Shown here one piece after another: positions 6,511 through 23,764 of a DNA stretch of 24,679 bases. This DNA comes from Prevotella sp. CAG:755 (GTDB taxonomy: Bacteria > Bacillota_I > Bacilli_A > RFN20 > CAG-826), in contig CAVGNL010000139.1 in NCBI GenBank assembly GCA_963630455.1, positions 1 through 24,679 of the forward strand, in the 5' to 3' direction. Both the position numbers and the translations under genes were made by a program. Within the stretch, counting starts at the first letter, position 1, and each line of letters opens with the position of its first letter. The notes under the pieces were generated by a model, which saw only the letters and a program-made list of their open reading frames with translations, did not search any database and was not told the DNA's origin.

Positions 6511-6516
6511 ATTATA
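6511..6516 (-). promoter_or_regulatory. Putative -10 box for the bmpA-nupABC operon
   Basis: Perfect TATAAT, part of the palindrome ATTATAAT, about 8 nt before the leader stem begins. Confidence 0.5.
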
Positions 6517-7983: not shown

Positions 7984-8573
7984 ACAAAAAGGAACTCGTT
8001 GAGCAACTTGAAGGATTTTGCCCCTTTAATGAGGAAGAAGCCAAAGAAAAGGAAATTATTCTCCAAGCCATAAATAACGAAAGCCATATATTCGATCGGA
8101 AAAATCAAATTTGTCACTTAACGACATCATCTTGGATTGCGAACAAAGATCTAGATAAAGTCTTGCTTTGCTACCATAACATCTACAAATCATGGAGTTG
8201 GCTTGGAGGGCATAACGATGGAGAGATTGATTGTCTCAAAGTTGCTTTAAAGGAAGCCAAGGAAGAAAGTGGCATTTCTAATTTCAAGATTTTGAACGCT
8301 GGAAAAATATTTTCTCTAGAAATCTTGACCGTAAATTCTCACTATAAAAAGGGAATATATGTCCCATCGCATCTTCATTTGAACCTCACTTATCTTTTGG
8401 AAGCAGATGAGAAGAGTCTCTTAAAAATAAAAGAAGATGAAAACTCGGGTTTAAGATGGGTTAAGTTAGAGGATGTCTACACGTTTTCGAATGAAGAATG
8501 GATGATTGAACATGTCTATAAGAAATTGAACGAGAAGCTCCTTCTTTTGAAAAAGAATGGAAATGCTTCTTAA
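7980..8573 (+). CDS. Nudix hydrolase
   Basis: Nudix box variant GGHNDGEIDCLKVALKEAKEESGI, HLTTSSWI, HLHLNLTY; ATGA coupling. Confidence 0.9.
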   Translation: MNKKELVEQLEGFCPFNEEEAKEKEIILQAINNESHIFDRKNQICHLTTSSWIANKDLDKVLLCYHNIYKSWSWLGGHNDGEIDCLKVALKEAKEESGISNFKILNAGKIFSLEILTVNSHYKKGIYVPSHLHLNLTYLLEADEKSLLKIKEDENSGLRWVKLEDVYTFSNEEWMIEHVYKKLNEKLLLLKKNGNAS

Positions 8574-8646: not shown

Positions 8647-8679
8647 AAAAACGAACCACCTTTTATGGCGATTCGTTTT
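8647..8679 (-). terminator. Intrinsic terminator for the GH38-HAD operon
   Basis: Minus strand AAAACGAATCGCC-ataaaa-GGTGGTTCGTTTT (13 bp with two G-U pairs) running into TGTTTTG, 25 bp after the HAD stop. Confidence 0.75.
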
Positions 8680-8704: not shown

Positions 8705-9688
8705 TTATTCACCATCGATAAATTTTAGAATTGAGTCAAAATCATCGGCATAATAGTCGCATAAAGCCTTTGTGCCGCTTGCTTCGATATTGCCGCCAGA
8801 AATGCCGATTGTAGGATATCCAGCAAGACGGATTGAACAAACACCAGCTCCGCTATCTTCGATGCCGACTACTGAATTTCGTTCCTCAAAAGGTATGTTA
8901 AGGCCAACGGTGCAAGTTTCGGCATATAGCCATGGATGAGGCTTTGGCGATAATTCGCCTAGCGTCCCAACGCTTCCTTTCTTTAAAGGATACCCAGCAG
9001 AGATAATCGCATCATAGAAATCTTTTGGGTCGCCCATATCAAGGGTTTTAAAGGCTGAGAGTATCTCAGGCCAAGCCTTTTGATATAATCCCGAAGTCAC
9101 TAAGCCGATTTTAATGTTCCTCTCTTTAAGGGCCAAAAGAAATTCTTTGATGCCTTTTGCAGGCGTGAAGGCACTTTCCTTTCCTCTCCCTTCCATTATC
9201 TCATTCATCTCGTGTTCAGTATGTTCGAAATAATAGGCTCTAGCATCTTCGAGTTTTTTATCTGGGCAATATTTGTTGATGCAATACTGAAGATGCTCTG
9301 AGACACTGTGACCAGAGACGTGGGGAAGGTCGCTTTCCTCAAGTTTGAAGGAGGGATCGTTAAGCAAAGAAGCGATGGATTTTTGAATGATCCAAATCCA
9401 GAATTCCTCGCTTTTGACGGAAGTTCCATCCAAATCCATGAGAACTGCTTTGATTGGGCGCTTGATAGCGACTTTATTCACTGGATAATAAGCGTTATAA
9501 CCGATGGAGGATTTAACAAAGGCCAAGGAATGATTTTCAAAAGAAATGAACTCTACTTTCCTATCGCCAGTAGAGACAATTGCTTTAACGCCACCCTTGC
9601 CGACGTTGAACTTTTTATCCGACGTGGATTTTAATTCGATTAAGCCGCTATCGGGGCCAAATGAGCCTAAATTAGTGATATCTATCAT
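8705..9688 (-). CDS. HAD-superfamily phosphatase/phosphomutase (beta-PGM/CbbY-like) with N-terminal extension
   Basis: Motif I DLDGT (D85/D87), motif II LVTSG, motif III PKPHP, motif IV GIEDSGAG; about 77 extra N-terminal residues. Confidence 0.88.
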   Translation of the reverse strand: MIDITNLGSFGPDSGLIELKSTSDKKFNVGKGGVKAIVSTGDRKVEFISFENHSLAFVKSSIGYNAYYPVNKVAIKRPIKAVLMDLDGTSVKSEEFWIWIIQKSIASLLNDPSFKLEESDLPHVSGHSVSEHLQYCINKYCPDKKLEDARAYYFEHTEHEMNEIMEGRGKESAFTPAKGIKEFLLALKERNIKIGLVTSGLYQKAWPEILSAFKTLDMGDPKDFYDAIISAGYPLKKGSVGTLGELSPKPHPWLYAETCTVGLNIPFEERNSVVGIEDSGAGVCSIRLAGYPTIGISGGNIEASGTKALCDYYADDFDSILKFIDGE

Positions 9689-9689
9689 C

Positions 9690-12536
9690 TTATTTCACCA
9701 GCAAGAAAGTCGCGATTTTATGTTTCTTAAGCTCATAGGAGATGCTATTGTCATTGAATGAGATGTCGCTTATTGGCGTCTCATCGAGTTTTGTCTCTTT
9801 GACGCCTTTCAAAGAGAAGACGGTCGAAATGTTAAGCTTTTTATTTTCATCGGAGTTATTCCAAATGCGGTAAATGATGTCTTTGCCGTTTTCTGCAAGC
9901 TTGAAAGCACCAGAGACAACCGCTCCATCTCCGCCTTCGATTTTGATAAAGGAAGCTTTGGCTGGCAGTTTCCCTTTCGTTGGGACTCCCATAATGGCTT
10001 TCATTGCTACTTTGTTGGCATAAGCCTCTTCAAAAACCTTGCCTTCATTCCATAAGCCAGTGTGTGGATAGAGAGCGTATTCGTAAGTAAGGCTACCTAT
10101 GCAGTGTTGACCGGTATATTTATGAGTCTCTGCGAGAGTCATTTTGGAATTTGCGGTCATATAGGCTCTTTGCGTGCGGATCAAGGTAATCTTCAAGGTG
10201 CGGTTCTCATCATCTTCGACTTCGTATTCTCTTAATCCTTTAGAGAGGAAGGCGTAGCCAAGTTTTCCATCACTTACATCGACGAAATTCTGCATTGGTT
10301 GGAAAGAATAGAAGCCTTCTTTGTTGTCTTTGTGATCGCGCCACCTGATTGTTCTTTTCGCAACGTCCCAAGCTGATTCGGCATAGCACCAGTCGGCTTT
10401 TTCGATGGCAGTTGGATAGTGGACTGTGAGTTTATGATCTCGGGAATTATTGATGATGGTAGTTTTGATTTTGAGAGCTTTTGCTCCTTTTTCCAATGTT
10501 AAATACGTTTCGATGGATAAAGGCTTCATCTCGGAAGTGCGCTCATGGCCATCCAAAGAGGCTTCCGCAGGAATGTTCATCGTGAAAGCGATGCGGTAGA
10601 TGCCCCTTAGCTCATTGTTGCCTTCTATCATCTCGATATCGGCGTTGGCGCCAAAAGAGGTATAGGTTTTATTGACTTTCGGTTCAGCGTGCTCATGAGC
10701 GCTCCCGATTTCACCGGCATCGGTGTAGTAACCTTGGTTTTTCATCCAACGTTTTGTGAGTTTATCGAACATATCGAAAGTGCCGTTTGGATTGATTACG
10801 ACTTTAAGATATTCGTTTTCTAAGACGCCATTGCTTCTACCAATCAGTTTGCGATTATCAATGATTTCTGGCTCGAAAGCAAGATTTGCTAAACGCATGC
10901 GGAGTGCATAAGTGGCATAGCCATTTGCGGGAACTTTGGCTTTCACGAGGATATGCCTTCTTATGGTCTCGAATTTGATTGCTTTTGTATCAGTTTTTTT
11001 CTCAATGGCGACTAATGCCGTCTCAGAGGATAATTCCTTGCTTTCGATGATATTGCCTTTTTCATCCACGATATCAAAGAAAGTAGCAGCTGGGACAGGC
11101 GCGCCCATACCGTTATCGATCATCTTGACGGCGTCTTTTGGAGTATCGATAACTAGTTCAATCACCTCTTCGCGTTCGAAAGGAAGAGTGTTAAAAACGA
11201 CGATTGGATAATCTTCTTTTTCAAAACCAGTAGCAGTATCGATTTGCTGATAAAGGCTTACGCAGGCTCTGTTTGTAACTTCCTCGGCAACGGTTTTCGT
11301 GACGGAAAAAGAATAATTCATGTCAGTATGGGCACGATCAACGGCCGCGCCGCAGATGCTATCGTGGGCATGGCATTTCAATAGGGTATGCCAGGCGTGC
11401 TCGATGTTGGTGGCTGGGTATTCCCCACCGAGAAGGTATGAGGCGCTTGTTAAAGGCTCAGCAAGGTTAATCAGGCCATTTTCGCACTCTTCATTCATGA
11501 GTTTGATGTTGATGCGCGAAGAATGAGTTGCACCCAATAAAGCGTTGAAATCATCTGGTGCGAAAGTGGTATTACGGAGTTCTCCTTCGTAGCTAGCGTA
11601 GTCGTATTTTCCACTCTTAGCGAGATTCATAATGGTTTCCATATAGTCATCCATCCGCTCTTGCTTGATTTCGTAATCTGGATAGATCTTGTTCATGTCA
11701 GCGATTAATTCAGGCAAGTAACGATATGGCTCATCATTATCTTCCATGTTAAGGGCAAGAATATTGTTGCCAATAGCATAAGGCTCAGCTTGATTCAAAA
11801 GATAATCCAAAGAACGCTTAAGGACTTTCTCATCGTGGATATAGTTCTCGTTTTCCTTAGTGGCGACAAAGGCTTTCTCGTACGAACCCATATCGACCAT
11901 ATGAACCGGGGCTTCATCTCGACTGTATTTATAAGAAAGATCCTTCAGGCCCTTTCCTAAGACCGCTGGTCCATGGACATAGAAGAACCAATTTGTCCTC
12001 GTGACCTCATCAAAAGTTCTTAAAGTGAAAATAGAGCTTCCATCAGGTGCCGACCATTTGAATAAAGGGGTCAAGAAATGTTTGTTTGTTCCGCGATAGA
12101 AGATGGCGTTCTCGATGCCAAATCCTTGATAGAGTTGCGGAAGTTGGCTTGGTTGACCGTAAGAGGTAGCGGTATAACCCGATTTCATCGCTCCGCCGAA
12201 TTCCTTGCCCATTCTTCTTCCGGTTAAGAGATTACGGATCATGCTTTCTGGGGCAACGGTATTAGTTTCTGGCAAAGTATACCAATTAACGATGATCATT
12301 TTGCCTTCTTTGATGAGCTTTTTCACGCGTTCTCTATTTTCTGGACGAACGGTGAAATAGTCCTCTAAGACGATGGTGCCGCCATCAACGCAAAAATATT
12401 CATAAGTTGGCTTATTCTCCAAAATGTCGATGATGTTATCCATTAAATCGGCCAAGCGAAGTTTGCTTTGTTCAGCAGTATGTCTCCATTCCCGATCCCA
12501 ATGGGTTCCACTAATAAGATGAATTGTTTTTTTCAT
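9690..12536 (-). CDS. GH38 alpha-mannosidase-fold protein (MngB/SpGH38-like), cytoplasmic, atypical active site
   Basis: THWDREW, DGGTIVLEDY, WYTLPE, ESMIRNLL, SSRINIK, HAHDSICG, GLREYE, TLIR; 948 aa; no signal peptide; GAGG SD. Confidence 0.92.
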   Translation of the reverse strand: MKKTIHLISGTHWDREWRHTAEQSKLRLADLMDNIIDILENKPTYEYFCVDGGTIVLEDYFTVRPENRERVKKLIKEGKMIIVNWYTLPETNTVAPESMIRNLLTGRRMGKEFGGAMKSGYTATSYGQPSQLPQLYQGFGIENAIFYRGTNKHFLTPLFKWSAPDGSSIFTLRTFDEVTRTNWFFYVHGPAVLGKGLKDLSYKYSRDEAPVHMVDMGSYEKAFVATKENENYIHDEKVLKRSLDYLLNQAEPYAIGNNILALNMEDNDEPYRYLPELIADMNKIYPDYEIKQERMDDYMETIMNLAKSGKYDYASYEGELRNTTFAPDDFNALLGATHSSRINIKLMNEECENGLINLAEPLTSASYLLGGEYPATNIEHAWHTLLKCHAHDSICGAAVDRAHTDMNYSFSVTKTVAEEVTNRACVSLYQQIDTATGFEKEDYPIVVFNTLPFEREEVIELVIDTPKDAVKMIDNGMGAPVPAATFFDIVDEKGNIIESKELSSETALVAIEKKTDTKAIKFETIRRHILVKAKVPANGYATYALRMRLANLAFEPEIIDNRKLIGRSNGVLENEYLKVVINPNGTFDMFDKLTKRWMKNQGYYTDAGEIGSAHEHAEPKVNKTYTSFGANADIEMIEGNNELRGIYRIAFTMNIPAEASLDGHERTSEMKPLSIETYLTLEKGAKALKIKTTIINNSRDHKLTVHYPTAIEKADWCYAESAWDVAKRTIRWRDHKDNKEGFYSFQPMQNFVDVSDGKLGYAFLSKGLREYEVEDDENRTLKITLIRTQRAYMTANSKMTLAETHKYTGQHCIGSLTYEYALYPHTGLWNEGKVFEEAYANKVAMKAIMGVPTKGKLPAKASFIKIEGGDGAVVSGAFKLAENGKDIIYRIWNNSDENKKLNISTVFSLKGVKETKLDETPISDISFNDNSISYELKKHKIATFLLVK

Positions 12537-12588: not shown

Positions 12589-12602
12589 AAAAAAACGGTT
12601 TT
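12589..12602. promoter_or_regulatory. Candidate LacI-family operator 1 (AAAAAAACGGTTTT)
   Basis: AAnCGnTT pseudo-palindrome in the divergent promoter region; the identical 14-mer recurs at 15300-15313. Confidence 0.55.
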
Positions 12603-12642
12603 CTGATTTTTTTTGAAATTAGTTGTGTTACTATATGCCAAT

Positions 12643-14145
12643 ATGAAAAAACAAATATTTTGCGTAAGGCACATAACGCTCTCAGATGATGAACTTGCTC
12701 TTTTTACGTGTTTGCAGGGTTTAGCGAACAAAATTAAACCTGAATTGTTACTTGACGTTGACCATTATCTCGACTTCATTGACAAAAACGAATATGAAAT
12801 CTTAATGATTGATTTTAAGACCGCTCTCAATAAATATCTCCCTTCCTTGTCTTCTTATCTTCTTTATAATCTCGATCCATCTTCAACTGAAATCAACGCC
12901 GCTTTTTCGATAAGCGCTGCGACTGGAGCTCTAGCCATTCCTTCTTCTTTGGAATATCTCGTCAAAGGAAAATTGTCTCTTGTTGAGGATTTAACGAAAC
13001 TCGGTTTGGACAATTTAAACGTGCAACGTTATGCATTTGCTAAATACAAAGATAAATTGTCGAAAACCGGCTTAATCCATGAGCCTATTGGTAAAAATGA
13101 TGGGCATTTCCTTATCTCTTTGAGAGATTTTGCGATAACAAACAAATGGTTCGTTCTTTATGTCGATGAAAGCAAGGAACAAAGACGGTTCCTTGATGAA
13201 GTGCTATCCTACTTAGATAAAGGCATATGCATATATGGCTGGACGAGCGATGAAATCTCTTTTGTTAACCAAATTTCTAAATATGGTGATGCCATCATTC
13301 CTATGGATTGGAGTTCAAATCATTCTTTTTTTGGAACTTTCTCTCCGAAAAAAGTCGCAAGAAAAAAACATTATGAGGAGATAAAAGAGAATAGACATTA
13401 TCTGTCTTTTGTGGTGAGCGATGGAGATAACATTCAGTGGCTTGAAAGAAGCTATTGTTTTTCCTCTTTCTATATGGATTTAGCCTCAGTAAGACGCAAA
13501 TACCCTTTGACGATGTCAATTAGTCCAGCTCTCATCGACCTTAATCCGATGTGCCTTGAATATATTTACCATCATGTCGACAACGAGGATTTTATCTGCG
13601 GCGTTTCTGGTTATGGATATATGAATCCTTGTGTTTTCCCACGCGAATTTCTTCCTGCTTATGTTAAGAAAACGAGCGAATATCTCTCATTTATGGATAT
13701 CAATGTTGCGATGCTTTTGGACAATAAGAGGGACATGAGCAAAGAAAAGGTCGAGTTTGTCGTTTCTTCCTATGCCAAATGCCCAAATATCATTGGAGGG
13801 GTTTATGAGATTGATCCGAGCAAATATGAAGGCGGAAAAGGAAAGGTGTTTTGGGCGAATGATAAGCCATTTATCTCAGTAAAAGCCTCTCTTTGGAATC
13901 TTTTTGACAGAAAAGAAGAGGAAGAAACAAACAAAGAGAAACTCATCAACGATTTAGCTGGTTTCATAAATTCTTTGCCCATCGATCCTTTTGAGGAAAG
14001 CGGCTATAGCGTCATCAACGTCCATCCATGGTCTACTACTTGCAAAGACCTTGATAAATTAGTTAATCTATTAAGTGACAACGTGCAAATTCTCGGCATT
14101 GAACAATTGATTCTCTTGATGAGGAAAAACATAAAAAGAAAATAA
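12643..14145 (+). CDS. GxGYxYP-family putative glycoside hydrolase, cytoplasmic; start revised to ATG at 12643
   Basis: LQGLANK, LRDFA, IYGW..DE, DWSSNHS, VVSDGDNIQW, SGYGYMNP, VINVHPWS; no hydrophobic signal peptide. Confidence 0.85.
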   Translation: MKKQIFCVRHITLSDDELALFTCLQGLANKIKPELLLDVDHYLDFIDKNEYEILMIDFKTALNKYLPSLSSYLLYNLDPSSTEINAAFSISAATGALAIPSSLEYLVKGKLSLVEDLTKLGLDNLNVQRYAFAKYKDKLSKTGLIHEPIGKNDGHFLISLRDFAITNKWFVLYVDESKEQRRFLDEVLSYLDKGICIYGWTSDEISFVNQISKYGDAIIPMDWSSNHSFFGTFSPKKVARKKHYEEIKENRHYLSFVVSDGDNIQWLERSYCFSSFYMDLASVRRKYPLTMSISPALIDLNPMCLEYIYHHVDNEDFICGVSGYGYMNPCVFPREFLPAYVKKTSEYLSFMDINVAMLLDNKRDMSKEKVEFVVSSYAKCPNIIGGVYEIDPSKYEGGKGKVFWANDKPFISVKASLWNLFDRKEEEETNKEKLINDLAGFINSLPIDPFEESGYSVINVHPWSTTCKDLDKLVNLLSDNVQILGIEQLILLMRKNIKRK

Positions 14146-14161: not shown

Positions 14162-15160
14162 ATGATTTCAATCAATGATATAGCGGAAAAAAGCGGAGTG
14201 GCAAAATCCACGGTCAGCAACGTTCTTTCAGGCAAGCGCTACGTCTCTGAGCCTATCAGAGAAAAAGTGCTTAAAGTTTGTAAGGAATACAACTATTCGC
14301 CAAATTTTTACGCATCCCTCTTAAGCAATGCCGACAACGTTAGGACGAATATCATTGGCGTTTTCCTCGAAACTTCAACGAAAAGATACCACAATTTCTA
14401 TAATGACGTGATAAGAACAACGCTTACTTATTGGAGCGATTATAACGTTAACGTCCTTCTTTATTTTGGACCGAAAGAAAAGGAAGTTTCCGATAAATTA
14501 AGGAAGGGGCAATCTCCAATCGATGGAGCGATACTCGTGGGGCCAACCCTCATGGATACGCGTATATCAGAAATGGAATTGAACTCAATTCCTTTTGTTG
14601 TCATCGGTTCGACAGATTCTGAAAAAATAACCTGTGTTGATACCAATAACGAGACATTATGCGAATATATTGCCAAAAAGATGATTGAAGTTGGGAAAGA
14701 CAAGATATGTCTTATCAATTCGAATCAGTCACTCACCATTTCCAAAGACAGGGAGAAGGGGTTCATGAAAGCAATCGAAGAAAAGAAACCTTCGATGCAT
14801 TCTTCCTTCTATACTGAGAATTCTTCTGTTGAAGAGGGCTTCTATCACGCTTCTCTTTCGCTTGAAAAAGGCTATAACGCCTTCATCGTCGGCTCAGCCA
14901 TTATCGCAAAGGGCGTCTATCAGGCAATTAGGAGCAAGAACCTTATTGTTGGGAAGGATGTAGTGGTCTTTGCTCTTGGATCACCTAAAAAAGATCTTGA
15001 AGCGTTTGACATACCTCTTTCTTATGCCGAACAAGATTATGGTCAACTCGCTCTTGAAGCCTCTATCCAGCTACGTGAGATTATGAATGAAGGCAAACCA
15101 CATAATGTCTTGATAAAAAGCAAGATTCATGTCAATGATTCATTCGTGTTTGAGGAATAA
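14162..15160 (+). CDS. LacI-family transcriptional regulator
   Basis: HTH ISINDIAEKSGVAKSTVSNVLS, hinge YSPNFYA, IDGAIL, IPFVVIG, VDTNN. Confidence 0.93.
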   Translation: MISINDIAEKSGVAKSTVSNVLSGKRYVSEPIREKVLKVCKEYNYSPNFYASLLSNADNVRTNIIGVFLETSTKRYHNFYNDVIRTTLTYWSDYNVNVLLYFGPKEKEVSDKLRKGQSPIDGAILVGPTLMDTRISEMELNSIPFVVIGSTDSEKITCVDTNNETLCEYIAKKMIEVGKDKICLINSNQSLTISKDREKGFMKAIEEKKPSMHSSFYTENSSVEEGFYHASLSLEKGYNAFIVGSAIIAKGVYQAIRSKNLIVGKDVVVFALGSPKKDLEAFDIPLSYAEQDYGQLALEASIQLREIMNEGKPHNVLIKSKIHVNDSFVFEE

Positions 15161-15299: not shown

Positions 15300-15316
15300 A
15301 AAAAAACGGTTTTTTT
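15300..15316. promoter_or_regulatory. Candidate LacI-family operator 2 (A7-CGG-T7)
   Basis: Pseudo-palindrome ending 2 bp upstream of a -35 box; matches the site at 12589. Confidence 0.55.
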
Positions 15317-15385: not shown

Positions 15386-16645
15386 ATGAAAAAAAGATTC
15401 AAATTACCAATCCTACCAATTTTGTTATCAACTTGCCTAATCGCTTGCGCTCCGAAAGAAAAGACAAGCGGAGGAGATGAGAATAAAACCATCACCGTTT
15501 GGTGGCCGTCGACAAATAGCTACATGAAGGTTATTCAAAACGCCAAAGAAAAATTCGAAGCCGATAATCCTAATTGTACGATTAAGATCGTTAAGAAATC
15601 CGGCCTCGACCTTTATCAAGCATATCAAGTTGCCTTAAACGATGATAAATCACGCCCCGATATCGCGATCATCGATCATGTTTACGTTCAATCTTTGGCT
15701 AACGAAGGCCAACTAGCCGACTTATCCGCTCTAGGAGCAGATACTGAGGTAAAAGAACTTGTTCCAGAAAATATATATAATGCCAACGCGTATTTAGGAA
15801 AGGCTTACGCTCTTCCGATGTCAGCAAATACGGTTGCTTTGATGTATAACATGACGATGCTAAAGAAATCCGGCATCAATAACGCTCCAACTACTTATAG
15901 CGAGTTTCTTTCGGATTTGGAAACCATCAAAAACGGATGCACTGAGGCTGAAGTAGCATTTGCTCAACCAATTAATTCAACCTTCTCGGCAATGGAATTC
16001 GTGAGTTATGTTTCACGCTTAGGAGGAAGCTTAGTTTCTGAAGATTGCAAAACAGTCAAGATTGATTCAACAGAGGTCAAAAATGCCATCGCCGAATGGG
16101 TGAAGCTTTCGAAATTTGCCTCTCAGAACGAATATGAGGAGGGCAAGTTCTATAATGGCAAATGCGCCTTCATCGAAATGGGTTCTTGGAATCTTAGCAA
16201 AATCAATTACAACGCCGTTGAGCTCGGCATCAAGGAAATGCTGCCGCTCATGGACGGGGGAACTGGCTATTCTGGATTAGGTTTATATTCCCTAGCCATC
16301 GCCAAAAAATCCTCATGTGTCAACGAGGCCTATAAATTTGCCAAATACCTTTCCACAGATAAAGAGAGCCAGATTGCCTTTGCTAAAGCAGGTAGCCTCT
16401 TCCCTGTCACGAAAGAAGCTCTTGGCGATACTTATTACACCTCTGATCAATATCTTTCCGTTTATGCTTCGCAACTCGAGCACGTCACTCCTAGGCCAGC
16501 CACTCCGATTTGGCCTTTTATGGAGAAAAAACTCGTGACCTTACTTTATAGATGCGTTACCGCCACAAGCGAAGATACAATCGCTCAAGCTATCGCCACT
16601 TGCCAAAGCGAATGCCAAAGCGAAACAGACCGCAAATTGGGCTAA
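15386..16645 (+). CDS. Sugar ABC transporter substrate-binding lipoprotein (family 1)
   Basis: Lipobox LIAC; TITVWW, PDIAIID, LADLS, GKAYALP, LMYN, FYNGKCAF..GSW, EAYKFAKYL. Confidence 0.92.
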   Translation: MKKRFKLPILPILLSTCLIACAPKEKTSGGDENKTITVWWPSTNSYMKVIQNAKEKFEADNPNCTIKIVKKSGLDLYQAYQVALNDDKSRPDIAIIDHVYVQSLANEGQLADLSALGADTEVKELVPENIYNANAYLGKAYALPMSANTVALMYNMTMLKKSGINNAPTTYSEFLSDLETIKNGCTEAEVAFAQPINSTFSAMEFVSYVSRLGGSLVSEDCKTVKIDSTEVKNAIAEWVKLSKFASQNEYEEGKFYNGKCAFIEMGSWNLSKINYNAVELGIKEMLPLMDGGTGYSGLGLYSLAIAKKSSCVNEAYKFAKYLSTDKESQIAFAKAGSLFPVTKEALGDTYYTSDQYLSVYASQLEHVTPRPATPIWPFMEKKLVTLLYRCVTATSEDTIAQAIATCQSECQSETDRKLG

Positions 16646-16648
16646 AAA

Positions 16649-17617
16649 ATGAGAAAGAAAGACACTTCTATCATTTACGATTTAAATTATCGGGACATTG
16701 AGAGAAACTCTTTGTTGAAGAAAAAGAGATTTTTCTCGCGTGAGGATAAAACTTCTTACCTGATGATTTTTTTGCCGATGCTTTGGTGGGGGGTCTTCTT
16801 TGTTTATGCTTTTGTGAGGGCTGTTTATTTTTCTTTCACCGATTTAACGCTTGATGTGAGTAATATCAGCGTCTTCTTTACCTTTGACAATTACGTGCGC
16901 TTATTTCATGATGAGACCTTCTTGGCATCAATGAAAAACACCATCATCTGGACGGTGTCGATGACGATTGCCAATAATGTTCTTGGGCTCATTTTCGCTT
17001 ATCTCATCACAAAGATGAAGAAAGGTCAAAAGCTTTTTTTGACGCTCCTATTCTGGCCGACTCTTGTTTCCTCGGTTGCTTCGACTGAGATCACAAAGCA
17101 GATTTTCAGTCCTTCCGATAGTGGTTTGATGAACCAGATAATTATGGCTTTCGGAGGAAACAAATTAGCTTGGTACAACGATAAGTCTTTGGCTCTTATC
17201 ACTTTGATGATCATGCCGCTTTTATTGGGGTTTTCTTCCCAACTCATTATTTATTACGTCGCTTTGAAAGGCGTCGACCAAAATCAAATAGAGGCGGCAA
17301 AGATTGATGGGGCAAAAGGATTCTCGATTTTTAAGAATATCTATGTGCCTTCGATTATGAAAGCAATCAACTATAACGTCATTCTTTCTATCATTTCTGG
17401 CGTACGAATCATGGGTCCAATGCAACTTATCGCTGATAATCCTTTGATTGCTGGTGGGCCTGATAACGCCACGATTACTGTAGTTCTCTACCTTTACCAA
17501 AATATTCTCAATAACGAAATGGCTTATGCTTGCGCAATCGGCGTCATCACGACGATCGTTATCGTCTTCTTCTCGATAATGCAACGAAAAGTCTCAGGCA
17601 ATAATAAGGGGTTTTGA
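16649..17617 (+). CDS. Carbohydrate ABC transporter permease (CUT1, MalF/UgpA-like)
   Basis: SFTD, FDNYVRLF, EAA loop EAAKIDGA, GGP, YACAIG; transmembrane helices. Confidence 0.92.
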   Translation: MRKKDTSIIYDLNYRDIERNSLLKKKRFFSREDKTSYLMIFLPMLWWGVFFVYAFVRAVYFSFTDLTLDVSNISVFFTFDNYVRLFHDETFLASMKNTIIWTVSMTIANNVLGLIFAYLITKMKKGQKLFLTLLFWPTLVSSVASTEITKQIFSPSDSGLMNQIIMAFGGNKLAWYNDKSLALITLMIMPLLLGFSSQLIIYYVALKGVDQNQIEAAKIDGAKGFSIFKNIYVPSIMKAINYNVILSIISGVRIMGPMQLIADNPLIAGGPDNATITVVLYLYQNILNNEMAYACAIGVITTIVIVFFSIMQRKVSGNNKGF

Positions 17618-18519
17618 TGATGATGGATGATAGGAAACTTCAAATAGAAATCGCGACGAGAGATGCAAATGCGAAAATTAAGAAAGATAAAATCAGCGGC
17701 ATCATTTTGACGGTGACGATTGTTATTGTCCTTTCTATTATCGCTTTGGCTCAGATTTTTCCTTTTTATCTCCAATTCGTCACCTCTCTTCAGCCTGTTG
17801 AGGGTTTTTATCCAGAATACGGCAAAATCTATTTTTTCCCTGTGGAAATATGTTTTTCTAACTATGTCGAGGCTTTTATTGAAGGAGAGTTGCTAGAAGG
17901 AATCAAAAACACTTTGATCGTGGCCTTTGGCTTCATCATTCTCTCTTCTATCATCATTCTCCTTATGGGGTATGTTTTAGCGAAGAAGAAGTTCAAAGGG
18001 CGTAGCATCGTTACTTGGTGCCTTCTTATCACGATGATGGTCCCTGGTGAGATATTAATGGTCACCAACTATCAACTCGTTTCTTCTTTAGGCTGGACTA
18101 GCTCTTACGCTGGGCTTATTCTTCCAGGCATTGTCAATGTAACTGGCATTTTCCTTGTGAAAGCCTTCATGGATTCGATACCTGATGCTTGCCTAGAAAG
18201 CGCAAAATTAGATGGGGCAAGCGAACTTAAAATCCTTCTTTCGATTGTGCTTCCGCTTTCTTTCCCAGTGATTTCAACTTATATCGTGCTTAATTTCGTG
18301 GCTCAATGGAACGATTATCTTTGGCCGATGCTGATTACTGGCGATAGCTCAATGTTCACAATCCAACTTAAACTCTATAACTTTGCTGGTTCGAGCGATT
18401 GGGGAGAGACGGTTTATAAAGCCGCGTCCTTGATCATTTCCCTAATTCCAGTTCTAATCGTTTATTTTTGCTGCCAGAAGAAATTCATCGGCGGCTTGAA
18501 TTTTTCAGGCATCAAATAG
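17617..18519 (+). CDS. Carbohydrate ABC transporter permease (CUT1, MalG/UgpE-like); start is one of the ATGs at 17617/17620/17623
   Basis: NTLIV, GYVLAKKKFKGR, MMVP, ESAKLDGA, WNDYLWP, QKKFIGG; TGATG overlap. Confidence 0.92.
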   Translation: MMMDDRKLQIEIATRDANAKIKKDKISGIILTVTIVIVLSIIALAQIFPFYLQFVTSLQPVEGFYPEYGKIYFFPVEICFSNYVEAFIEGELLEGIKNTLIVAFGFIILSSIIILLMGYVLAKKKFKGRSIVTWCLLITMMVPGEILMVTNYQLVSSLGWTSSYAGLILPGIVNVTGIFLVKAFMDSIPDACLESAKLDGASELKILLSIVLPLSFPVISTYIVLNFVAQWNDYLWPMLITGDSSMFTIQLKLYNFAGSSDWGETVYKAASLIISLIPVLIVYFCCQKKFIGGLNFSGIK

Positions 18520-18531: not shown

Positions 18532-20808
18532 ATGAAAAAGAAAATGATGTCGTTATTGCTCTTCTTCGGCGCTTTGCTCGCTTCATGCGCCACAAACAAG
18601 ACCGATTCCGGTAAAAGCGATGAGAGCCAGACTTCCTCAACTTCCCAAGGTGATGACAACGTCAAAAAAATCAAGGAAGGAGCTTTCTATAAGCCGAATG
18701 GGTTTGCCACAACGTGCTATGTGATTCCTAGAAGCTCTTTAACAAGCGCGGAATTCGTCCTCATTCAATCTCTTCAAGGCATTTTGGCTCAAAATAAAGC
18801 CACGATTTTCATCTCTGGCATGGGAGAGAAGGATGCGACTTTCACGGAGATGAGCGAAAAGTTGGGCTTTTCTATCGTTGAGATTGAAGACCCATGGGAA
18901 TTATTGAGGATTCATAAGAAGTCAATCGTAAATCAGAAGTTCGTTACCTATACTTCCACAGATAAAGGCGATGCTTACGATAATTCCATTAATCGTGCGG
19001 CCACGATTGCCGGCGTTGAGCAATGGATCATGGTCGAGAATAGCCTGGTCAGCCAATGTCTTGCAGAAGGCTTTAAACTCGGATCCGATGCTTCAAATAT
19101 GACGGATGCAGAAGTTTTCCACAAATATAAAGAATTCCTTAACAATACCTATTTGGTGAATCAGAAGCCGAGCTCTCTTCCTTTAAGAGATTATGGAATC
19201 GCCGGCGCTAGCTTATCGACTTATGTGGATTATATCGATGATGATCTTCGCAAAGAGATATCGGAGTGGACTTGTTCGAATTGCCCGGTTTTTGGCTGGA
19301 CAGAGAATGAAGGCAGCTTCGTTGCGTATAATTCGAATTACTCGATGGTCACTATCGCTGCAGATTGGAGCGGGAACCTCTCTTTTATGGCGGCTGAGGA
19401 TATTAATAATGATTTAGTGCCAGCAAATAGAAGCAAATCCACCGTCAAAGCTGAAGAAGGAAAGCATTATGTTACCATCGTTATGTCGGATGGTGACAAC
19501 GTGCAATGGCTCCAACGTGGTTTTGAAACCGATAGCAAATACTACGGTTCGAAATATCGTGGCAAATTCAAGATGAATTGGACGATGGCTCCATCCTTGA
19601 GCGATGTCGCCCCTTATGTCATGGAGTCAATTTACGATAAAGCCACAACGAAAGATGATTTCATCTGTGGGCCTTCAGGATTCGGCTATGTCAATGTCAA
19701 CGACTATAACGAATCGACTATGGAAGATTATGCCGCAAAAACGGCCGGTTATTGTGAGAAATCCGGCTTAAGCGTCCTTAATTTCATCGACAATTACGTT
19801 TCTTCTTCCTATCTTGATTATTTTACTAAATACGACAACATCAAAGGCGGGCTTTGGAGCGTTAGTGATTATTATGTCCAAGGAGGCGATACTGGGGCAG
19901 GTGGAGTTTATTGGAGCAATGATAAACCATTCGTTTGCTTCCGCGACACTCTTTGGAGAGTATCGGGCTCAGCGGTTGCCAAATATTATGGCTATACGGA
20001 AAGAGTGGCTCAGCGTATCAATGATCGTTCAACAGATATTCATTCTATCGAAGCTTATTCGGCTGTTGTTTGCCATGCTTGGTCTATTGGCACGATGGAA
20101 TACATCAACCGTTTTGTTGAGCAACTTGACGATCATGTTGAAGTGGTGAATGCTGGCGAATTTATCGATCTCATCACGGAAAACGTGCCGCATCAAGATG
20201 TTGAGGAAGTGTTGGATCATAACCCTTTCGCATATAGCGATGATGAATTATGCGCGATTGAAACTGATCCTTTCTATTGGAATGATGTTAAAGATACGCC
20301 TGTTACCAATAAAAAGGCTTGGGATTTCTCTTCTGGGGAGCAAAGCGATTGGACGCTTGGATGTGGAGGATTGCAATACGACAGCGCAAAATACACAAGT
20401 GATGGTATTTATCTAGATGGCTCAGACCTCGATGATAGAGACGACTATATTCCAAATGCCTATGCCTACACGATGAGAAATTGGTCAAATGAAGATAAGA
20501 AAATAACGATGGTTGCCAAATCCGGCTCGGCTACTTCGGACGTCAATTTGCGTGTGAGGCTCTACTTGGAGGATCCTAATTCGAAACGTGGCGCAAGTTC
20601 TATCAATTTGGTTGCAAATGAATGGGATAAGGCAAAAGTGAACCAATATGGTTATTATCTATTCCAAAGCGGCGAATTCCAGACCTTCACCTTTGATTTA
20701 TCTTCCTATGATTTGGCTGGCAAAAAAGGCTTGCTTGTCTTTGAAAGCGATGATAGCGGCGAAGGAAGTGGTGAAATAGTTAGATGCAAATCCATCAGCA
20801 TTGAATAA
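18532..20808 (+). CDS. GxGYxYP-family putative glycoside hydrolase, surface lipoprotein with extra C-terminal domain
   Basis: Lipobox LASC and Ser/Thr linker; SLQGILA, LRDY, VFGW..NE, DWSGNLS, VMSDGDNVQW, SGFGYVNV, VVCHAWS; AGGAGG SD. Confidence 0.85.
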   Translation: MKKKMMSLLLFFGALLASCATNKTDSGKSDESQTSSTSQGDDNVKKIKEGAFYKPNGFATTCYVIPRSSLTSAEFVLIQSLQGILAQNKATIFISGMGEKDATFTEMSEKLGFSIVEIEDPWELLRIHKKSIVNQKFVTYTSTDKGDAYDNSINRAATIAGVEQWIMVENSLVSQCLAEGFKLGSDASNMTDAEVFHKYKEFLNNTYLVNQKPSSLPLRDYGIAGASLSTYVDYIDDDLRKEISEWTCSNCPVFGWTENEGSFVAYNSNYSMVTIAADWSGNLSFMAAEDINNDLVPANRSKSTVKAEEGKHYVTIVMSDGDNVQWLQRGFETDSKYYGSKYRGKFKMNWTMAPSLSDVAPYVMESIYDKATTKDDFICGPSGFGYVNVNDYNESTMEDYAAKTAGYCEKSGLSVLNFIDNYVSSSYLDYFTKYDNIKGGLWSVSDYYVQGGDTGAGGVYWSNDKPFVCFRDTLWRVSGSAVAKYYGYTERVAQRINDRSTDIHSIEAYSAVVCHAWSIGTMEYINRFVEQLDDHVEVVNAGEFIDLITENVPHQDVEEVLDHNPFAYSDDELCAIETDPFYWNDVKDTPVTNKKAWDFSSGEQSDWTLGCGGLQYDSAKYTSDGIYLDGSDLDDRDDYIPNAYAYTMRNWSNEDKKITMVAKSGSATSDVNLRVRLYLEDPNSKRGASSINLVANEWDKAKVNQYGYYLFQSGEFQTFTFDLSSYDLAGKKGLLVFESDDSGEGSGEIVRCKSISIE

Positions 20809-20820
20809 GGAGAAATGATT

Positions 20821-22254
20821 ATGAAAAAGACAAATCTATTCTTGATTCCTCTCTCAGTCTTGCTTTTAGCGGGATGCGATTCGACAAATTCTTCTTCTGA
20901 TAAGAGTGTGGAAGAAAGCTCTTCTAGCCAAATTGAATTAAAACTCTCAACACCGACGATCAAACTTGATGGAAACCTTATTAGTTGGGAGAGGGTTGAA
21001 CACGCTAGCGGATATTGCTTATATGAGAACGATGAGGTGAAATACAATCATCTAAATACTTTGTCATATGAAATATCCGTCGATGAAAGCGGAACATATT
21101 CCTACTATATTGTTGCTCTCGATAGAAACAATTCTTACCTTCCAAGCGAAAAGAGCAACGCCGTCTCTTACACTTATGAAAAACCGGTGGCTCTTGTCGC
21201 TCCGAGGATTTCTTTGAATGATAAGACCATCTCCTGGGAAGAGGTTCCTGGCGCTGAGAAATATTGCATCTATAGCAATGGCGAATACTTAATTGACGTC
21301 ACTTCGACTTCTTACACCCTCTCTTTTAGCGAAGTTGGAGGCTATAACATCCAAGTTCAGGCTAAACGCGGGGACGAACTTTCGCCATTTTCAAACACGG
21401 TCATTTATAAAAATGTCGATGGAATAAGTTTGAATACTTCGACTTCTTGGAACCGAACCACTTTATATAACGAATGGATCAGAAGCGGCGATTTCGATAC
21501 GGGAGTTGGCGAAGGATTCGATATGAAAGCGGGGGCCACGGCTTTCGTTTATCACGCTATCTCTAGCGAAACAAGATTCCTTAAGGTTTCAATCAGAAAT
21601 TTCGTGCGCGAAGGAGAGACAAACCCGAAATTCTTCGTCTATGTTGATGGAAAGGTAGTGCGAGCTAACGATTCAACAACGGATTATGTTACTCTAAATA
21701 GCGACTCCCCAATCGACTTTATTTATGACCTTTCTCTATATGTCGGTGAAAATGTCTTTATTAAATTCTATGAGGCTGCCGCCACGCATTGTTGCATCAC
21801 TAGCGTCAAATTGCTTGAACGGGCTGGTGCCACTTTGAGTGAAAACACCTCTTGGGAGAATAAGGATAGTTTCTTTGCCGACTGGTATACTTCTTCCGTC
21901 AATTCCATCAATGAAGGACCTGATTTTGCGGGAAATGGCAGCGCGGCAATCAAAATCAATCTGACCGAGGAGAAGCGCTACTTCACCGTCACTTGGCGTA
22001 TGTTTGTCAATCAAGACACTGATAAAGCACGCGTTTTGACAATGGTCGATAAAAACACCGTCAAGGCTATAGGCGTTACCACGGAATATGTCTTAGTAGA
22101 AGCTGCTGAAGGAGATCCGCACTTCACCTATATTTATGATTTCTCCGATTATATCGGAAGTACCGTGACAATCACTATGACTTCTATCAACAAAGCGGTC
22201 AATCATTGCGTCTTCTTAAATGCCAAATTGAGCGCTTCGAACAGCAATTCCTAA
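20821..22254 (+). CDS. Hypothetical surface lipoprotein: two Fn3-like repeats plus two repeated beta-rich domains; start likely 20821
   Basis: Lipobox LAGC; internal repeats visible by eye; AAGGAG SD at 20807-20812 is spaced for the ATG at 20821. Confidence 0.75.
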   Translation: MKKTNLFLIPLSVLLLAGCDSTNSSSDKSVEESSSSQIELKLSTPTIKLDGNLISWERVEHASGYCLYENDEVKYNHLNTLSYEISVDESGTYSYYIVALDRNNSYLPSEKSNAVSYTYEKPVALVAPRISLNDKTISWEEVPGAEKYCIYSNGEYLIDVTSTSYTLSFSEVGGYNIQVQAKRGDELSPFSNTVIYKNVDGISLNTSTSWNRTTLYNEWIRSGDFDTGVGEGFDMKAGATAFVYHAISSETRFLKVSIRNFVREGETNPKFFVYVDGKVVRANDSTTDYVTLNSDSPIDFIYDLSLYVGENVFIKFYEAAATHCCITSVKLLERAGATLSENTSWENKDSFFADWYTSSVNSINEGPDFAGNGSAAIKINLTEEKRYFTVTWRMFVNQDTDKARVLTMVDKNTVKAIGVTTEYVLVEAAEGDPHFTYIYDFSDYIGSTVTITMTSINKAVNHCVFLNAKLSASNSNS

Positions 22255-22270: not shown

Positions 22271-23764
22271 ATGGCAAATGTCGTTTTACGAAATATCAAT
22301 AAAATCTATGATAACGGTTTCCATGCCGTTCACGATTTCTCATTCGATATCTCTGACAAAGAGTTCGTTGTTTTCGTTGGCCCTTCGGGATGTGGAAAGA
22401 GCACGACTTTACGAATGATCGCCGGGCTAGAAAATATAAGCGATGGCGAACTCTATGTCGATGGCATTTTGTTCAATAATGTTTCTCCACAAGACCGCGA
22501 TGTAGCGATGGTCTTCCAAAATTACGCTCTTTATCCACATATGAGCGTTTACGAGAATATGGCTTTCGGTTTAAAGAATCACAAGATCAAAAAGCCGAAA
22601 TTAAATGAAAATGGCGAACAAGAGAAGCTTGTTGACAAAAAGACAATCAAATATCTCGAAAAACAGATTAAAATCGCCTCGAAAAGCTTAAAGAAAAAGA
22701 ATCTCACAGATGATGAACGCTCATTTTTGGAAAAAGAGAAAAAAGAATACGAAGAGAAAATCTCCTTAGTTAAGACAAATCCTGTCCCGGCTTATGTTTA
22801 TGTCAAATATCCAAAAGAGGAAATCGATAGTCGTATTAGAAAGGCTGCCAAAATTCTTGATATTGAACAATTTTTGAATCAAAAGCCAAAATCGCTTTCC
22901 GGCGGGCAACAGCAACGCGTTGCTTTGGGCAGAGCAATTGTTAGAAACCCAAAACTCTTCCTTATGGATGAGCCTCTTTCTAATTTAGATGCCAAACTTC
23001 GTGTGGCGATGAGAAGTGAAATTGTGGATTTGCATGAGAAAATCGGGGCGACGACAATTTATGTAACCCACGATCAAACCGAAGCAATGACGATGGCCGA
23101 TAAAATCATTGTCATGAATAAAGGCTACATTCAACAAATCGGAAAACCCGAAGAAATATACCGCCATCCAGCTAACCGCTTCGTGGCTACCTTTATAGGG
23201 AGCCCAGCCATGAATCTTTTCAAAGCGACTTATTCTTTGAAAGAAGGCAATATTGATATCGGCGAGACGAAAATTAAACTTAGCAAAGGGAAGCAAGAGG
23301 CCGTTAAAGCAAAACTTGCTGAAATCATTAAACGTTATGAGCAAGATTCCCTCACGATTGAAAGCAATATTGCCGATTATTGCGCTAAAAATAACCTCAA
23401 AGCAAGAAGCGAGAAAAAGAAAATCGATGTTGCGAATAGAATTGCTTCCGATGAAGTTCTCAATAAGCGGAAAGCGTATTTGTTTTCGCTCAAAGATGAA
23501 GTCGATAAAGGCACGATCGCTTTGACTCTTGGAATCCGCCCTGAGGATATTTTGATTGGGGAAAGTGGCCAAAAAATCAAGACAACGATTGTAGAGCTAC
23601 TTGGAGCGCAACTTATTGTTCATGGCTTATTAGATGAGACCCATATCGCGATTACTTCACCTGCGAATACAAATATAAAATCGCACGATACGGCATACAT
23701 CACTTTCAATGAGGATAATATTCATCTTTTCCTCACCGACGATAATGAGACTTCTTTAATCTAA
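22271..23764 (+). CDS. msmX: Sugar ABC transporter ATP-binding protein (MsmX/MalK/UgpC-like) with large insertions
   Basis: [60 protein letters not shown]. Confidence 0.93.

Follow-up and report, generated by a model that had tools for sequence, protein, structure and literature searches.

Glycoside hydrolase family GH38 is a textbook retaining family that includes the Golgi and lysosomal mannosidases. The bacterial members with solved structures include (i) SpGH38 from S. pyogenes (PDB codes, 2WYH and 2WYI) and (ii) the enzyme from E. faecalis (PDB codes, 3LVT and 5KBP). A further bacterial member, MngB from E. coli, is a cytoplasmic, PTS-linked 2-O-(6-phospho-α-mannosyl)-D-glycerate hydrolase that retains the Asp nucleophile and Tyr18, and its locus lacks a HAD partner. 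A second point of reference is given by the operons that pair an inverting GH65 phosphorylase with β-phosphoglucomutase (β-PGM), in which a β-sugar 1-phosphate is handled by the adjacent C1-capped HAD.

The literature searched, outside subscription journals, disclosed no GH38 phosphorylase among the matches listed, judged by title or abstract, in keeping with an earlier note on this DNA that knew of none, no α-mannoside phosphorylase, and no natural nucleophile-less GH38. Nor was a β-phosphomannomutase found in the literature searched, the matches for β-mannose 1-phosphate belonging to heptose biosynthesis, and those for mannobiose or mannosylglycerate phosphorylases concerned only GH130 or unrelated topics. 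The locus described here, part of a window of 24,679 nucleotides (the whole stretch of DNA that was analysed), combines a GH38 enzyme lacking its nucleophile with a HAD-superfamily protein.

Architecture of the locus

The region 8705-12536 is a two-gene operon within a LacI-controlled glycan-utilisation cluster. The first gene (9690..12536, minus strand) encodes a GH38-fold enzyme of 948 aa without the catalytic nucleophile, assigned by Pfam, alignment, and model, and the second (8705..9688, minus strand) a putative HAD-superfamily sugar-phosphate enzyme of 327 aa, assigned by Pfam, motifs, and fold. A single base (9689) separates the GH38 stop codon from the HAD ATG, confirming the 1-bp spacing given in the earlier note, and the terminator that it took to be common to both genes corresponds to one terminator-like hairpin with a 13-bp stem and a T run (8648..8679, minus strand), which lies 26 nt past the HAD stop codon and closes the operon. 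No terminator call falls in the 1-nt gap between GH38 and HAD, the other calls being plus-strand hairpins within genes.

Divergent from the GH38 gene is that of a cytoplasmic GxGYxYP-family putative glycosidase (12613..14145, plus strand; likely true start, the ATG at about 12643), followed by a LacI-family regulator (14162..15160, plus strand). The intergenic region between the two divergent genes contains the near-palindromic AAAAACGGTTTT (12591..12602), a candidate LacI-type operator with weak statistics, of which an exact second copy lies upstream of the transporter operon (15302..15313). The plus strand continues with a sugar ABC importer (15386..18519), comprising a lipoprotein solute-binding protein (15386-16645) and two permeases (16649-17617 and 17614-18519), and then with (i) a GxGYxYP-family surface lipoprotein of 758 aa, a putative extracellular glycanase (18532..20808); (ii) a repeat-containing lipoprotein of unknown family, 479 aa in length, which occurs in the conserved cluster of some relatives (20815..22254); and (iii) an MsmK/UgpC-type ABC ATPase serving the importer (22271..23764). 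Signal peptides are absent from the GH38 enzyme and the HAD, and the solute-binding protein of the importer and the surface proteins are lipoproteins. Cytoplasmic enzymes placed behind an importer and surface lipoproteins are the usual setting of phosphorylases.

The GH38 enzyme and its nucleophile-less relatives

All four GH38 domains score above the Pfam cut-off in the 9690-12536 ORF (PF01074, 104 bits; PF09261, 44 bits; PF07748, 51 bits; PF17677, 40 bits), and the structural model (pLDDT 93.3) superposes over the whole chain with 5KBP, 2WYH, and 2WYI at TM 0.82-0.89, displaying the same five-domain fold over the full length at 23-25% identity. The best NCBIfam match is the model of E. coli MngB (NF007331), an enzyme of similar length and 26% identity; nevertheless, the assignment as MngB was rejected, given a score of 423.1 bits against a cut-off of 1138 and the Asp-type character of MngB.

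The alignment to the solved enzymes (3LVT/5KBP and 2WYH) places GYTATSYG opposite GYFPDTFG, with Thr124 at the position of the nucleophile Asp (D125 in SpGH38, D204 in dGMII), a residue that doubles as the fourth Zn ligand. The absence of the nucleophile, recognised in the earlier note, is thereby borne out, Thr124 replacing Asp and the acid/base Asp266 being kept. Also retained are the HWD (H12, D14) and HAHD (H391, D392) motifs, R148, and the stacking Trp shared with the solved bacterial enzymes; D266, H12, D14, and H391 align with SpGH38 D232, H13, D15, and H351, preserving three of the four Zn ligands (His, Asp, and His; H12, D14, and H391). On the other hand, compared to SpGH38, Asp125 is replaced by Thr, Tyr192 by Thr181, Tyr19 by Arg18, and Tyr574 by His614 (Trp in most of the clade), whereas relative to the solved bacterial enzymes in general Arg180 precedes Thr181, the His after FG becomes Gln, and the His after the acid/base becomes Asn. 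The Tyr181 column corresponds to SpGH38 Y192 and R148 to SpGH38 R149. According to PMC2815779, Y192 hydrogen-bonds the nucleophile, R149 pairs with the nucleophile and lies beside it at the O6 position, and Y574 holds the O4-equivalent hydroxyl. The clade-specific residues R18 and R180 follow barrel strands 1 and 6 of the model, respectively, on the catalytic face that also carries H12/D14, T124, R148, and D266. Since the motif GYTAT[S/A]YG occurs in 120/120 GH38 sequences (the query and 119 homologues, 55-100% identical), Thr124 is no chance or sequencing error; the key catalytic-site residues, including Thr124 and R18/R180, are invariant throughout this set of TATS-type sequences.

Of the 145 cluster representatives closest to the GH38 ORF, 84 lack the Asp and make up a large natural clade that is undescribed in the literature searched; the tree splits them cleanly from the Asp-type enzymes (support 0.992). 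Residue counts were made over 105 nucleophile-less and 61 Asp-type sequences. Kept across the clade are the acid/base, the three Zn ligands, and the Asp/His pair holding the sugar 2,3-diol (in the 105 sequences, H12 in 103, D14 in 102, D266 in 103, H391 in 104, and D392 in 103), whereas position 124 is occupied by Phe (42), Thr (41), Cys (8), Ser (6), Asn (3), Ala (3), Gly (1), or Arg (1), Gln takes the place of His128, and the His267 and Tyr181 positions vary. Arg180 is found in 99/105 nucleophile-less sequences, compared to Gly in 48/61 Asp-type ones, and Arg18 in 78/105, compared to Tyr in 55/61. Because H12, D14, D266, H391, and D392 are retained while Asp124, His128, His267, and Tyr181 change, the catalytic machinery, judged by residue conservation, is selectively remodelled rather than decayed. 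The clade-wide pattern also fits an anion in the nucleophile's place, since the acid/base and the sugar and Zn ligands are kept, the supporting Tyr and His are lost, and Arg18 and Arg180 are gained. The hydroxyl-rich TATS loop highlighted in the earlier note exists in the query subclade, but a general role for it in phosphate binding was rejected because Phe is the commonest residue of the clade at the old nucleophile position, which argues against a polar phosphate-binding loop.

Loss of the defining nucleophile, together with the partly remodelled -1 subsite in which SpGH38 Y574 gives way to His614 and mostly to Trp in the clade, could instead reflect a protein that is no glycosidase, including (i) a carbohydrate-binding or regulatory pseudo-enzyme; (ii) an esterase or deacetylase using the His-Asp-His metal site, by analogy with the related CE4 fold; or (iii) an enzyme of intramolecular transglycosylation yielding an anhydro-sugar. 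We consider this very unlikely in view of the strict purifying selection that a very large clade shows at the acid/base Asp, at the Asp/His that bind the sugar, and at the stacking Trp, and of the operon link to glycan import and other glycosidase-like genes.

A different possibility, an inverting hydrolase, has water attacking C1 with Asp266 as acid, the water being either Zn-bound (His-Asp-His) or activated by E352, D405, or D464; in line with it, the nucleophile-less clade conserves these three residues better than the Asp-type enzymes do. Under this view the HAD, a phosphatase or mutase of mannose phosphates, would be unrelated and share only its regulation with mannoside catabolism. Metal-assisted inverting α-mannosidases known in GH92 and GH47, as cited in PMC2815779, provide a precedent. 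Such a hydrolase leaves unexplained the gain of Arg180 and Arg18 beside the retained R148.

The HAD partner and its association with GH38

The HAD comprises (i) an N-terminal β domain (about residues 1-70) and (ii) a C1-capped HAD core with the four motifs. Pfam recognises HAD_2/Hydrolase in the 8705-9688 ORF (PF13419, 47 bits), and the motifs DLDGT (85-89), KPHPW (249-253), and GIEDSGAG (275-282), as well as D85, D87, T198/S199, K249, and E277-D278, do not vary among the 32 family members compared; conservation is unusually high, with at least 70% identity among the best 120 homologues. The core and cap fold is shared with the MtlD phosphatase domain (7OCS), CbbY (4UAU), BT2127 (3QU2), and β-PGM (4GIB, 3NAS), including motifs I-IV with the second Asp of DxD (Foldseek E 1e-9 to 1e-11; TM to target 0.7-0.79), but identity to the C1-capped HADs reaches only 15-22%, and the N-terminal β domain of ~70 residues and the insert at 232-248 set the protein apart. 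The best fold matches are the phosphatases MtlD, CbbY, and BT2127, with β-PGM at ranks 26-31, and an ESM Atlas search returned generic HAD names only. Membership of the β-PGM family was rejected, the HAD scoring 30.7 bits with TIGR01990 against a cut-off of 189.4 and its profile reaching only E 2.7e-5 against the PDB; the DLDG, KPHP, and GIEDSGAG motifs reported previously stand, and are invariant, but the β-PGM argument drawn from them is weakened. In a weak alignment (E 0.0014), Val129 occupies the place of β-PGM Arg49, the cap residue of the distal phosphate site in the L. lactis enzyme.

This very conserved HAD tracks the nucleophile-less GH38 clade across phyla. Across the 301 genomes sampled from the order, the HAD is present in 13/13 genomes with a nucleophile-less GH38 and in 0/22 with only Asp-type enzymes, a strongly positive outcome of the co-occurrence check suggested in the earlier note; two of the 15 HAD-positive genomes are without any nucleophile-less GH38. 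The HAD gene lies directly downstream of GH38 in 6/6 genome loci, and in the own-phylum sample it directly follows a T-type GH38 in 3/3 HAD-bearing genomes (70-73% identity); the linkage extends beyond Asp-to-Thr enzymes to Asp-to-Phe and Asp-to-Ser ones. In the metagenome set of 80 loci, the HAD accompanies 17 of the 36 Arg/Lys18-type GH38s but none of the 15 remaining nucleophile-less or the 29 Asp-type enzymes. Since 19/36 Arg18-type loci (seven of these flanked on either side by 3 kb or more) and 15/15 non-Arg18 nucleophile-less loci have no HAD nearby, nucleophile loss alone does not make the HAD necessary.

These HAD-free loci are in favor of the inverting hydrolase, as is the partnering of the HAD with ordinary hydrolases. 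In one locus (L022) it comes directly after a GH2 β-mannosidase with both catalytic Glu motifs intact, which led to rejection of the idea that this GH2 is also missing a catalytic residue; elsewhere it directly follows a GH130 gene and a GH106-like gene. In addition, free mannose has a route in this organism. Profile searches of the window ORFs found no sugar kinase, as the earlier note had stated, but contig C90 of the same genome carries a PMI gene and, after it, a ROK kinase, and relatives have PMI and ROK genes adjacent to the cluster, in one case as a PMI-ROK fusion; the argument that no kinase implies phosphorolysis was therefore rejected. The inverting hydrolase accounts neither for the 13/13 versus 0/22 genome co-occurrence nor for the tracking of Arg18 in particular (17/36 versus 0/15), and we regard it as unlikely.

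The phosphatase-like folds nearest to the HAD also speak for a third alternative, in which the GH38 enzyme cleaves a 6-phospho-mannoside or a mannosyl-phosphodiester, e.g., of phosphomannans, and the HAD is a phosphatase finishing the degradation. The gained Arg residues would serve to hold the substrate phosphate, which may assist catalysis; a position near the old nucleophile site is suggested by the contact that R148 makes with O6 in canonical GH38 enzymes, SpGH38 R149 lying at O6 and adjoining the nucleophile (PMC2815779). Loci of Phe-type relatives encode secreted purple-acid-phosphatase-like proteins (L008-L011), a histidine phosphatase (L018), and NAGPA-type phosphodiester glycosidases (L058, L067, L069). 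Nevertheless, E. coli MngB cleaves a 6-phospho-mannoside and yet retains the Asp and Tyr (GYLPDSFG, HWDREWY), so a phosphorylated substrate does not demand nucleophile loss; the cluster in the window contains an ABC importer, not a PTS, and no phosphoesterase neighbours, and dephosphorylation of mannose 6-phosphate would waste a usable intermediate. This alternative appears distinctly unlikely.

Proposed route of α-mannoside cleavage

The reading preferred here, plausible although short of probable, is phosphate-dependent α-mannoside cleavage by the GH38 enzyme coupled to sugar-phosphate conversion by the HAD. The general acid is retained, and the opposite face offers neither a protein nucleophile nor a base, the arrangement expected of an inverting phosphorylase. 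An imported α-mannoside, or a close 2,3-cis-diol glycoside, would be cleaved in a single displacement, with Asp266 donating a proton to the leaving group and an external anion (inorganic phosphate being the likeliest) lodged in the cationic pocket vacated by the missing Asp. This pocket, deduced only from alignment and strand topology, would be formed by the retained R148 and the gained R180 and R18. Attack of the anion on C1 from the β face would yield a β-configured sugar 1-phosphate, which the HAD could convert to the 6-phosphate in a mutase-like reaction, or else dephosphorylate; mannose 6-phosphate would enter glycolysis via the PMI of the genome, and the free hexose of the aglycone would pass to the ROK kinase. 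The logic proposed would parallel that of the GH65/β-PGM operons, in which the general acid is kept and phosphate is the nucleophile, despite a different fold, a different sugar, and a HAD that lies outside the β-PGM family and carries an extra N-terminal β domain.

Phosphorolysis is favoured by the residue remodelling, the tree split, the HAD co-occurrence, the 1-nt operon, and the cytoplasmic location, and by the phosphorylase and mutase genes of related loci, including GH94 with PGM_PMM, a GH65 N-terminal domain, and GH130. The phosphorolysis/mutase reading is weakened by a HAD far below the β-PGM cut-off with phosphatases as nearest folds, by the occurrence of this HAD after intact GH2, GH130, and GH106-like genes, by the presence of PMI and ROK, and by the 2/15 HAD genomes without a nucleophile-less GH38. 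The phosphorylase/mutase operon envisaged in the earlier note thus gains from the co-occurrence and the residue pattern and loses the force of its TATS, kinase, and β-PGM arguments. That the Arg18/Arg180 clade represents the first α-mannoside phosphorylase family, a retaining fold turned by loss of the Asp into an inverting phosphorylase making β-mannose 1-phosphate, and the HAD the first β-phosphomannomutase, is possible but doubtful.

A nucleophile-less GH38 family may thus have an undescribed way of cleaving mannosides, possibly one that depends on phosphate, and phosphorolysis, metal-water inversion, or substrate assistance would alike be a new mechanism for GH38, changing the reading of thousands of genes annotated as 'alpha-mannosidase'. 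A phosphorylase would fill a missing enzyme class, α-mannoside phosphorylase with β-mannose 1-phosphate as product, useful in mannoside synthesis, and, if true, the pairing of Arg18/Arg180 GH38 and HAD would amount to an unseen, ATP-saving α-mannoside catabolism widespread in gut and environmental bacteria.

In the papers found, including PMC4071793, the GxGYxYP family had no assigned activity, and the literature search found no characterisation after 2014. The cluster would offer a lead on this family; both GxGYxYP neighbours carry the PF14323 C-terminal domain above cut-off, at 160 and 183 bits.

Loss of the catalytic nucleophile in the GH38 protein

The GH38 gene (9690-12536, minus strand) encodes a 948-aa protein that matches four GH38 Pfam domains, all above cut-off, and its confident AlphaFold model (pLDDT 93.3, pTM 0.94) fits bacterial GH38 structures along the whole chain, with TM scores of 0.82-0.89. 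The GYTATSYG stretch of this protein aligns with GYFPDTFG of the solved bacterial GH38s from E. faecalis (3LVT/5KBP) and S. pyogenes (SpGH38; 2WYH). According to its report, SpGH38 (i) binds Zn through H13, D15, D125, and H351, (ii) uses D125 as nucleophile, supported by R149 and Y192, and D232 as acid/base, (iii) positions the sugar with W18 and F127, and (iv) holds the sugar hydroxyls with D352 and Y574 (PMC2815779). The alignment places H12, D14, Thr124, and H391 of the window protein at the Zn-ligand positions, Thr124 corresponding to the nucleophile D125; the further counterparts comprise D266 (acid/base), R148, W17, Y126, D392, and His614 (Y574). The residue serving as both nucleophile and Zn ligand is thus lost, with the remaining glycosidic machinery in place.

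The motif GYTAT[S/A]YG, which defines the TATS type, occurs in 120/120 GH38s of the first homologue search (the query and 119 homologues, 55-100% identical), and the same set shows little or no variation at H12, D14, W17, R18, T122-T124, R148, R180, E265-D266-N267, H391, D392, and H614, bearing out the observation of the earlier note that this GH38 is nucleophile-less. Every nucleophile-less GH38 structure that surfaced was an engineered D204A mutant; the literature searched, outside which most subscription journals lay, yielded no natural nucleophile-less GH38, GH38 phosphorylase, α-mannoside phosphorylase, or β-phosphomannomutase. It is well supported by these comparisons that the window GH38 is a still selected, active-site-remodelled enzyme, incapable of the double displacement of its family; that it performs a different chemistry altogether or is a pseudo-enzyme appears quite improbable. 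The position of SpGH38 Y574, which holds the O4-equivalent hydroxyl, is occupied by His614 in the TATS type and by Trp in most nucleophile-less enzymes, so the -1 sugar may not be plain mannose.

The nucleophile-less clade and its active site

Of 1.84 billion cluster representatives searched, 4896 matched at E ≤ 1e-10. The alignment of 166 sequences comprises the query, 20 close homologues (every sixth of the 119), and 145 representatives, namely those longer than 800 aa among the best 150, five shorter ones being left out. Asp occupies the nucleophile column in 61 sequences. The other 105, of which 84 belong to the 145 representatives, have F (42), T (41), C (8), S (6), N (3), A (3), G (1), or R (1) there. 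In the tree the Asp-bearing sequences form one clade (SH-like support 0.992), and the TATS type branches from among the Phe types; judged from sequence, nucleophile loss marks out a large GH38 clade.

The 105 Asp-less sequences preserve H12 (103), D14 (102), D266 (103), H391 (104), and D392 (103), and carry Arg (80) or Lys (19) at the position of R148. Three residues are lost: the His after FG, replaced by Gln in 95/105; the His following the acid/base; and a Tyr kept in 57/61 Asp-type sequences, which corresponds to SpGH38 Y192, hydrogen-bonded to the nucleophile, when an Asp-type member is aligned to 2WYH. Two arginines are gained, Arg180 in 99/105 (Gly in 48/61 Asp-type sequences) and Arg18 in 78/105 (Tyr in 55/61), the former at the position directly before Y192 in the 2WYH alignment (printed chain numbering, offset 22). 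In the model, R18 follows barrel strand 1 and R180 strand 6, on the C-terminal face that bears H12/D14, T124, R148, and D266, and we infer that both lie close to C1.

The phosphorylase mechanism advanced in the earlier note is the most economical reading, to which we give somewhat less than even credence: phosphate, in place of the missing Asp, would attack C1, and the HAD protein would take on the resulting sugar 1-phosphate. This reading draws on the retained acid, the loss of Asp together with its supporting residues, the arginines gained next to R148, which is kept, and a partner acting on phosphate esters. The hydroxyl-rich TATS loop pointed out in that note cannot be a phosphate site for the clade in general, since the residue that replaces the nucleophile varies and is frequently Phe. 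An inverting hydrolase, possibly employing a Zn-water, with the HAD protein independently useful, is fairly unlikely. A glycosidase acting on phosphorylated mannosides, with the HAD protein as its phosphatase, is unlikely: the mannosylglycerate hydrolase MngB from E. coli, the best NCBIfam match of the window GH38, acts on a 6-phospho substrate and, unlike the window GH38, is Asp-type, so a phosphorylated substrate does not explain the nucleophile loss.

The HAD partner and its pairing with GH38

The HAD gene (8705-9688, minus strand; 327 aa, matching HAD_2 and Hydrolase) lies 1 base from the GH38 ORF; no hairpin was called in this 1-nt junction, and a terminator-like hairpin with a T run is located 26 nt 3' of the HAD gene. 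Motifs I-IV are intact (D85, D87, T198/S199, K249, and E277-D278) and do not vary across 32 aligned members. Conservation within the family is unusually high: of 4970 matches at E ≤ 1e-5, the best 120 are at least 69% identical, and at the genome loci the HAD protein (74-77%) exceeds the accompanying GH38 (63-64%) in conservation. An extra N-terminal β domain of ~70 residues is modelled confidently (pLDDT 89.1). Membership of the β-PGM family was rejected (30.7 versus 189.4 bits); the family profile reaches PDB β-PGMs with a best E of 2.7e-5, and β-PGM Arg49 falls opposite Val129 in a weak alignment. Foldseek places sugar-phosphate phosphatases at the top (the MtlD phosphatase domain, CbbY, and BT2127) and β-PGMs at ranks 26-31. 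In the ESM Atlas the family occurs in Chloroflexota, Planctomycetota, Verrucomicrobiota, and Bacillota, under generic names only. Neither sequence nor predicted fold discriminates between mutase and phosphatase.

The co-occurrence proposed in the earlier note was found. In an order-level sample of 301 genomes around one Clostridia relative, 15 carry the HAD and 35 a GH38 match (E ≤ 1e-40), all 35 of which were typed. The HAD accompanies nucleophile-less GH38s (residue 124 being T, F, or S, and R18 and R180 present in every one) in 13/13 genomes versus 0/22 with Asp-type GH38 only. The two genes adjoin in 11/13 and lie on different contigs in two. In the two other HAD-positive genomes, the gene immediately preceding the HAD is a GH2 β-mannosidase gene, with both catalytic Glu motifs present, or a GH106-like gene. 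In the own-phylum sample (401 genomes, G000 included; HAD threshold E ≤ 1e-30), six genomes match: the window's own, three with a 70-73% identical HAD directly after a T-type GH38, and two with shorter, 45-50% identical homologues and no match to the GH38 query. At the genome-contig loci the HAD is directly downstream of GH38 in 6/6, and the divergent GxGYxYP gene and LacI are also present in 5/6.

Among the best 80 of 556 confirmed metagenome stretches, retrieved with search patterns that partly favour the Asp-less type, a HAD-family ORF occurs in 0/29 Asp-type loci, 0/15 Asp-less loci without Arg/Lys18, and 17/36 Asp-less loci with Arg/Lys18. These 17 comprise 13 close homologues and four of a divergent 450-470 aa form sharing the flanking motifs of the family. 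Among the 19 Arg18 loci lacking a HAD, 12 have a flank shorter than 3 kb on one side or both, and seven have flanks of at least 3 kb on both; two of these seven (L107 and L109) are apparently the same sequence. Because related genomes are not independent, the counts from these samples do not amount to a statistical test. The pairing recurs across T, F, and S types and several phyla, and a functional tie between the window GH38 and this specific HAD family is well supported.

The gene for the divergent HAD form, which has an enlarged cap, immediately precedes nucleophile-less GH38 genes of the Phe type at metagenome loci L060 (4162-5553), L061 (4649-6001), L067 (2543-3910), and L068 (230-1642). 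Also encoded at these loci are PGM_PMM, GH94, and NAGPA-type phosphodiester glycosidases that are secreted and bear Por secretion tails.

Gene cluster and functional context

Neighbours of the GH38-HAD pair comprise (i) a GxGYxYP-family gene divergent from GH38, whose product has no signal peptide; (ii) a LacI-family regulator gene; (iii) a sugar ABC importer with a lipoprotein binding protein, two permeases, and an MsmK-type ATPase; (iv) a second GxGYxYP protein, a lipoprotein; and (v) a further lipoprotein of no known family. Signal peptides are absent from both GH38 and HAD proteins, and the picture suggested by the gene content is of depolymerisation at the surface, import, and processing in the cytoplasm. 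GxGYxYP proteins are described in α-mannan PULs and beside GH92 and GH38 genes (PMC4071793, 2014); they are still putative glycosidases, the literature search having given no characterisation after 2014. The near-palindrome AAAAACGGTTTT, a candidate LacI operator, has exactly two copies in the window, both within cluster promoter regions, one in the GH38/GxGYxYP divergent region (12591-12602) and one upstream of the binding-protein gene (15302-15313); its statistics are weak, three matches at ≤1 mismatch being reached in 4/100 shuffles.

In the window's genome, a mannose-6-phosphate isomerase (PMI) gene is followed by an adjacent, separate ROK kinase gene (contig C90, 1134-2989). Two Clostridia relatives carry a PMI-ROK fusion as one ORF of ~620 aa (G401:C5:42936-44783 and G404:C24:23691-25523), the former convergent with the HAD gene and immediately after it; in two relatives other than G401, PMI and ROK are within ~15 kb of the cluster. 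This ties the cluster to mannose and shows that free hexose, too, is to be expected. Phe-type relatives have at their loci secreted purple-acid-phosphatase-like proteins, a histidine phosphatase, NAGPA-type phosphodiester glycosidases, sulfatases, and SSF transporters, together with further genes of phosphorylase or mutase families (GH94 with PGM_PMM, a GH65 N-terminal domain, and GH130 directly upstream of the HAD).

URO-D-like genes (uroporphyrinogen decarboxylase family) recur next to the HAD or a nucleophile-less GH38 at unrelated loci (L012 10242-11252, L020 7734-8861, and L085 8855-11100). At L015 (6500-10754) and L016 (4593-8824), a gene for a GT4 glycosyltransferase precedes one for a 1010-aa GH38 (N-domain match 290-299 bits), both divergent from a HAD and Phe-type GH38 pair, a layout in which a strongly matching second GH38 is kept side by side with a nucleophile-less one.

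Elsewhere in the window, a nucleoside-salvage block (473-8573) comprises thymidine kinase, a four-gene PnrA/Bmp-type ABC transporter, and a final overlapping operon of deoxynucleoside kinase, CatA-like acetyltransferase, and NUDIX hydrolase; a chloramphenicol acetyltransferase call was rejected (78-82 bits versus cut-offs of 250-300). The MsmK/UgpC-type ATPase (22271-23764, plus strand; 497 aa) has the 137-position ABC_tran profile stretched over residues 21-236 and NCBIfam matches in 2-3 stretches, with residue 179 at profile position 105, implying a ~70-residue insertion inside the nucleotide-binding domain. Convergent with it, 23756-24628 (minus strand) encodes a 290-aa multi-pass membrane protein of no Pfam family; in L003 and L026, weak homologues (27-29% identity) are found close to MsmK-like genes.
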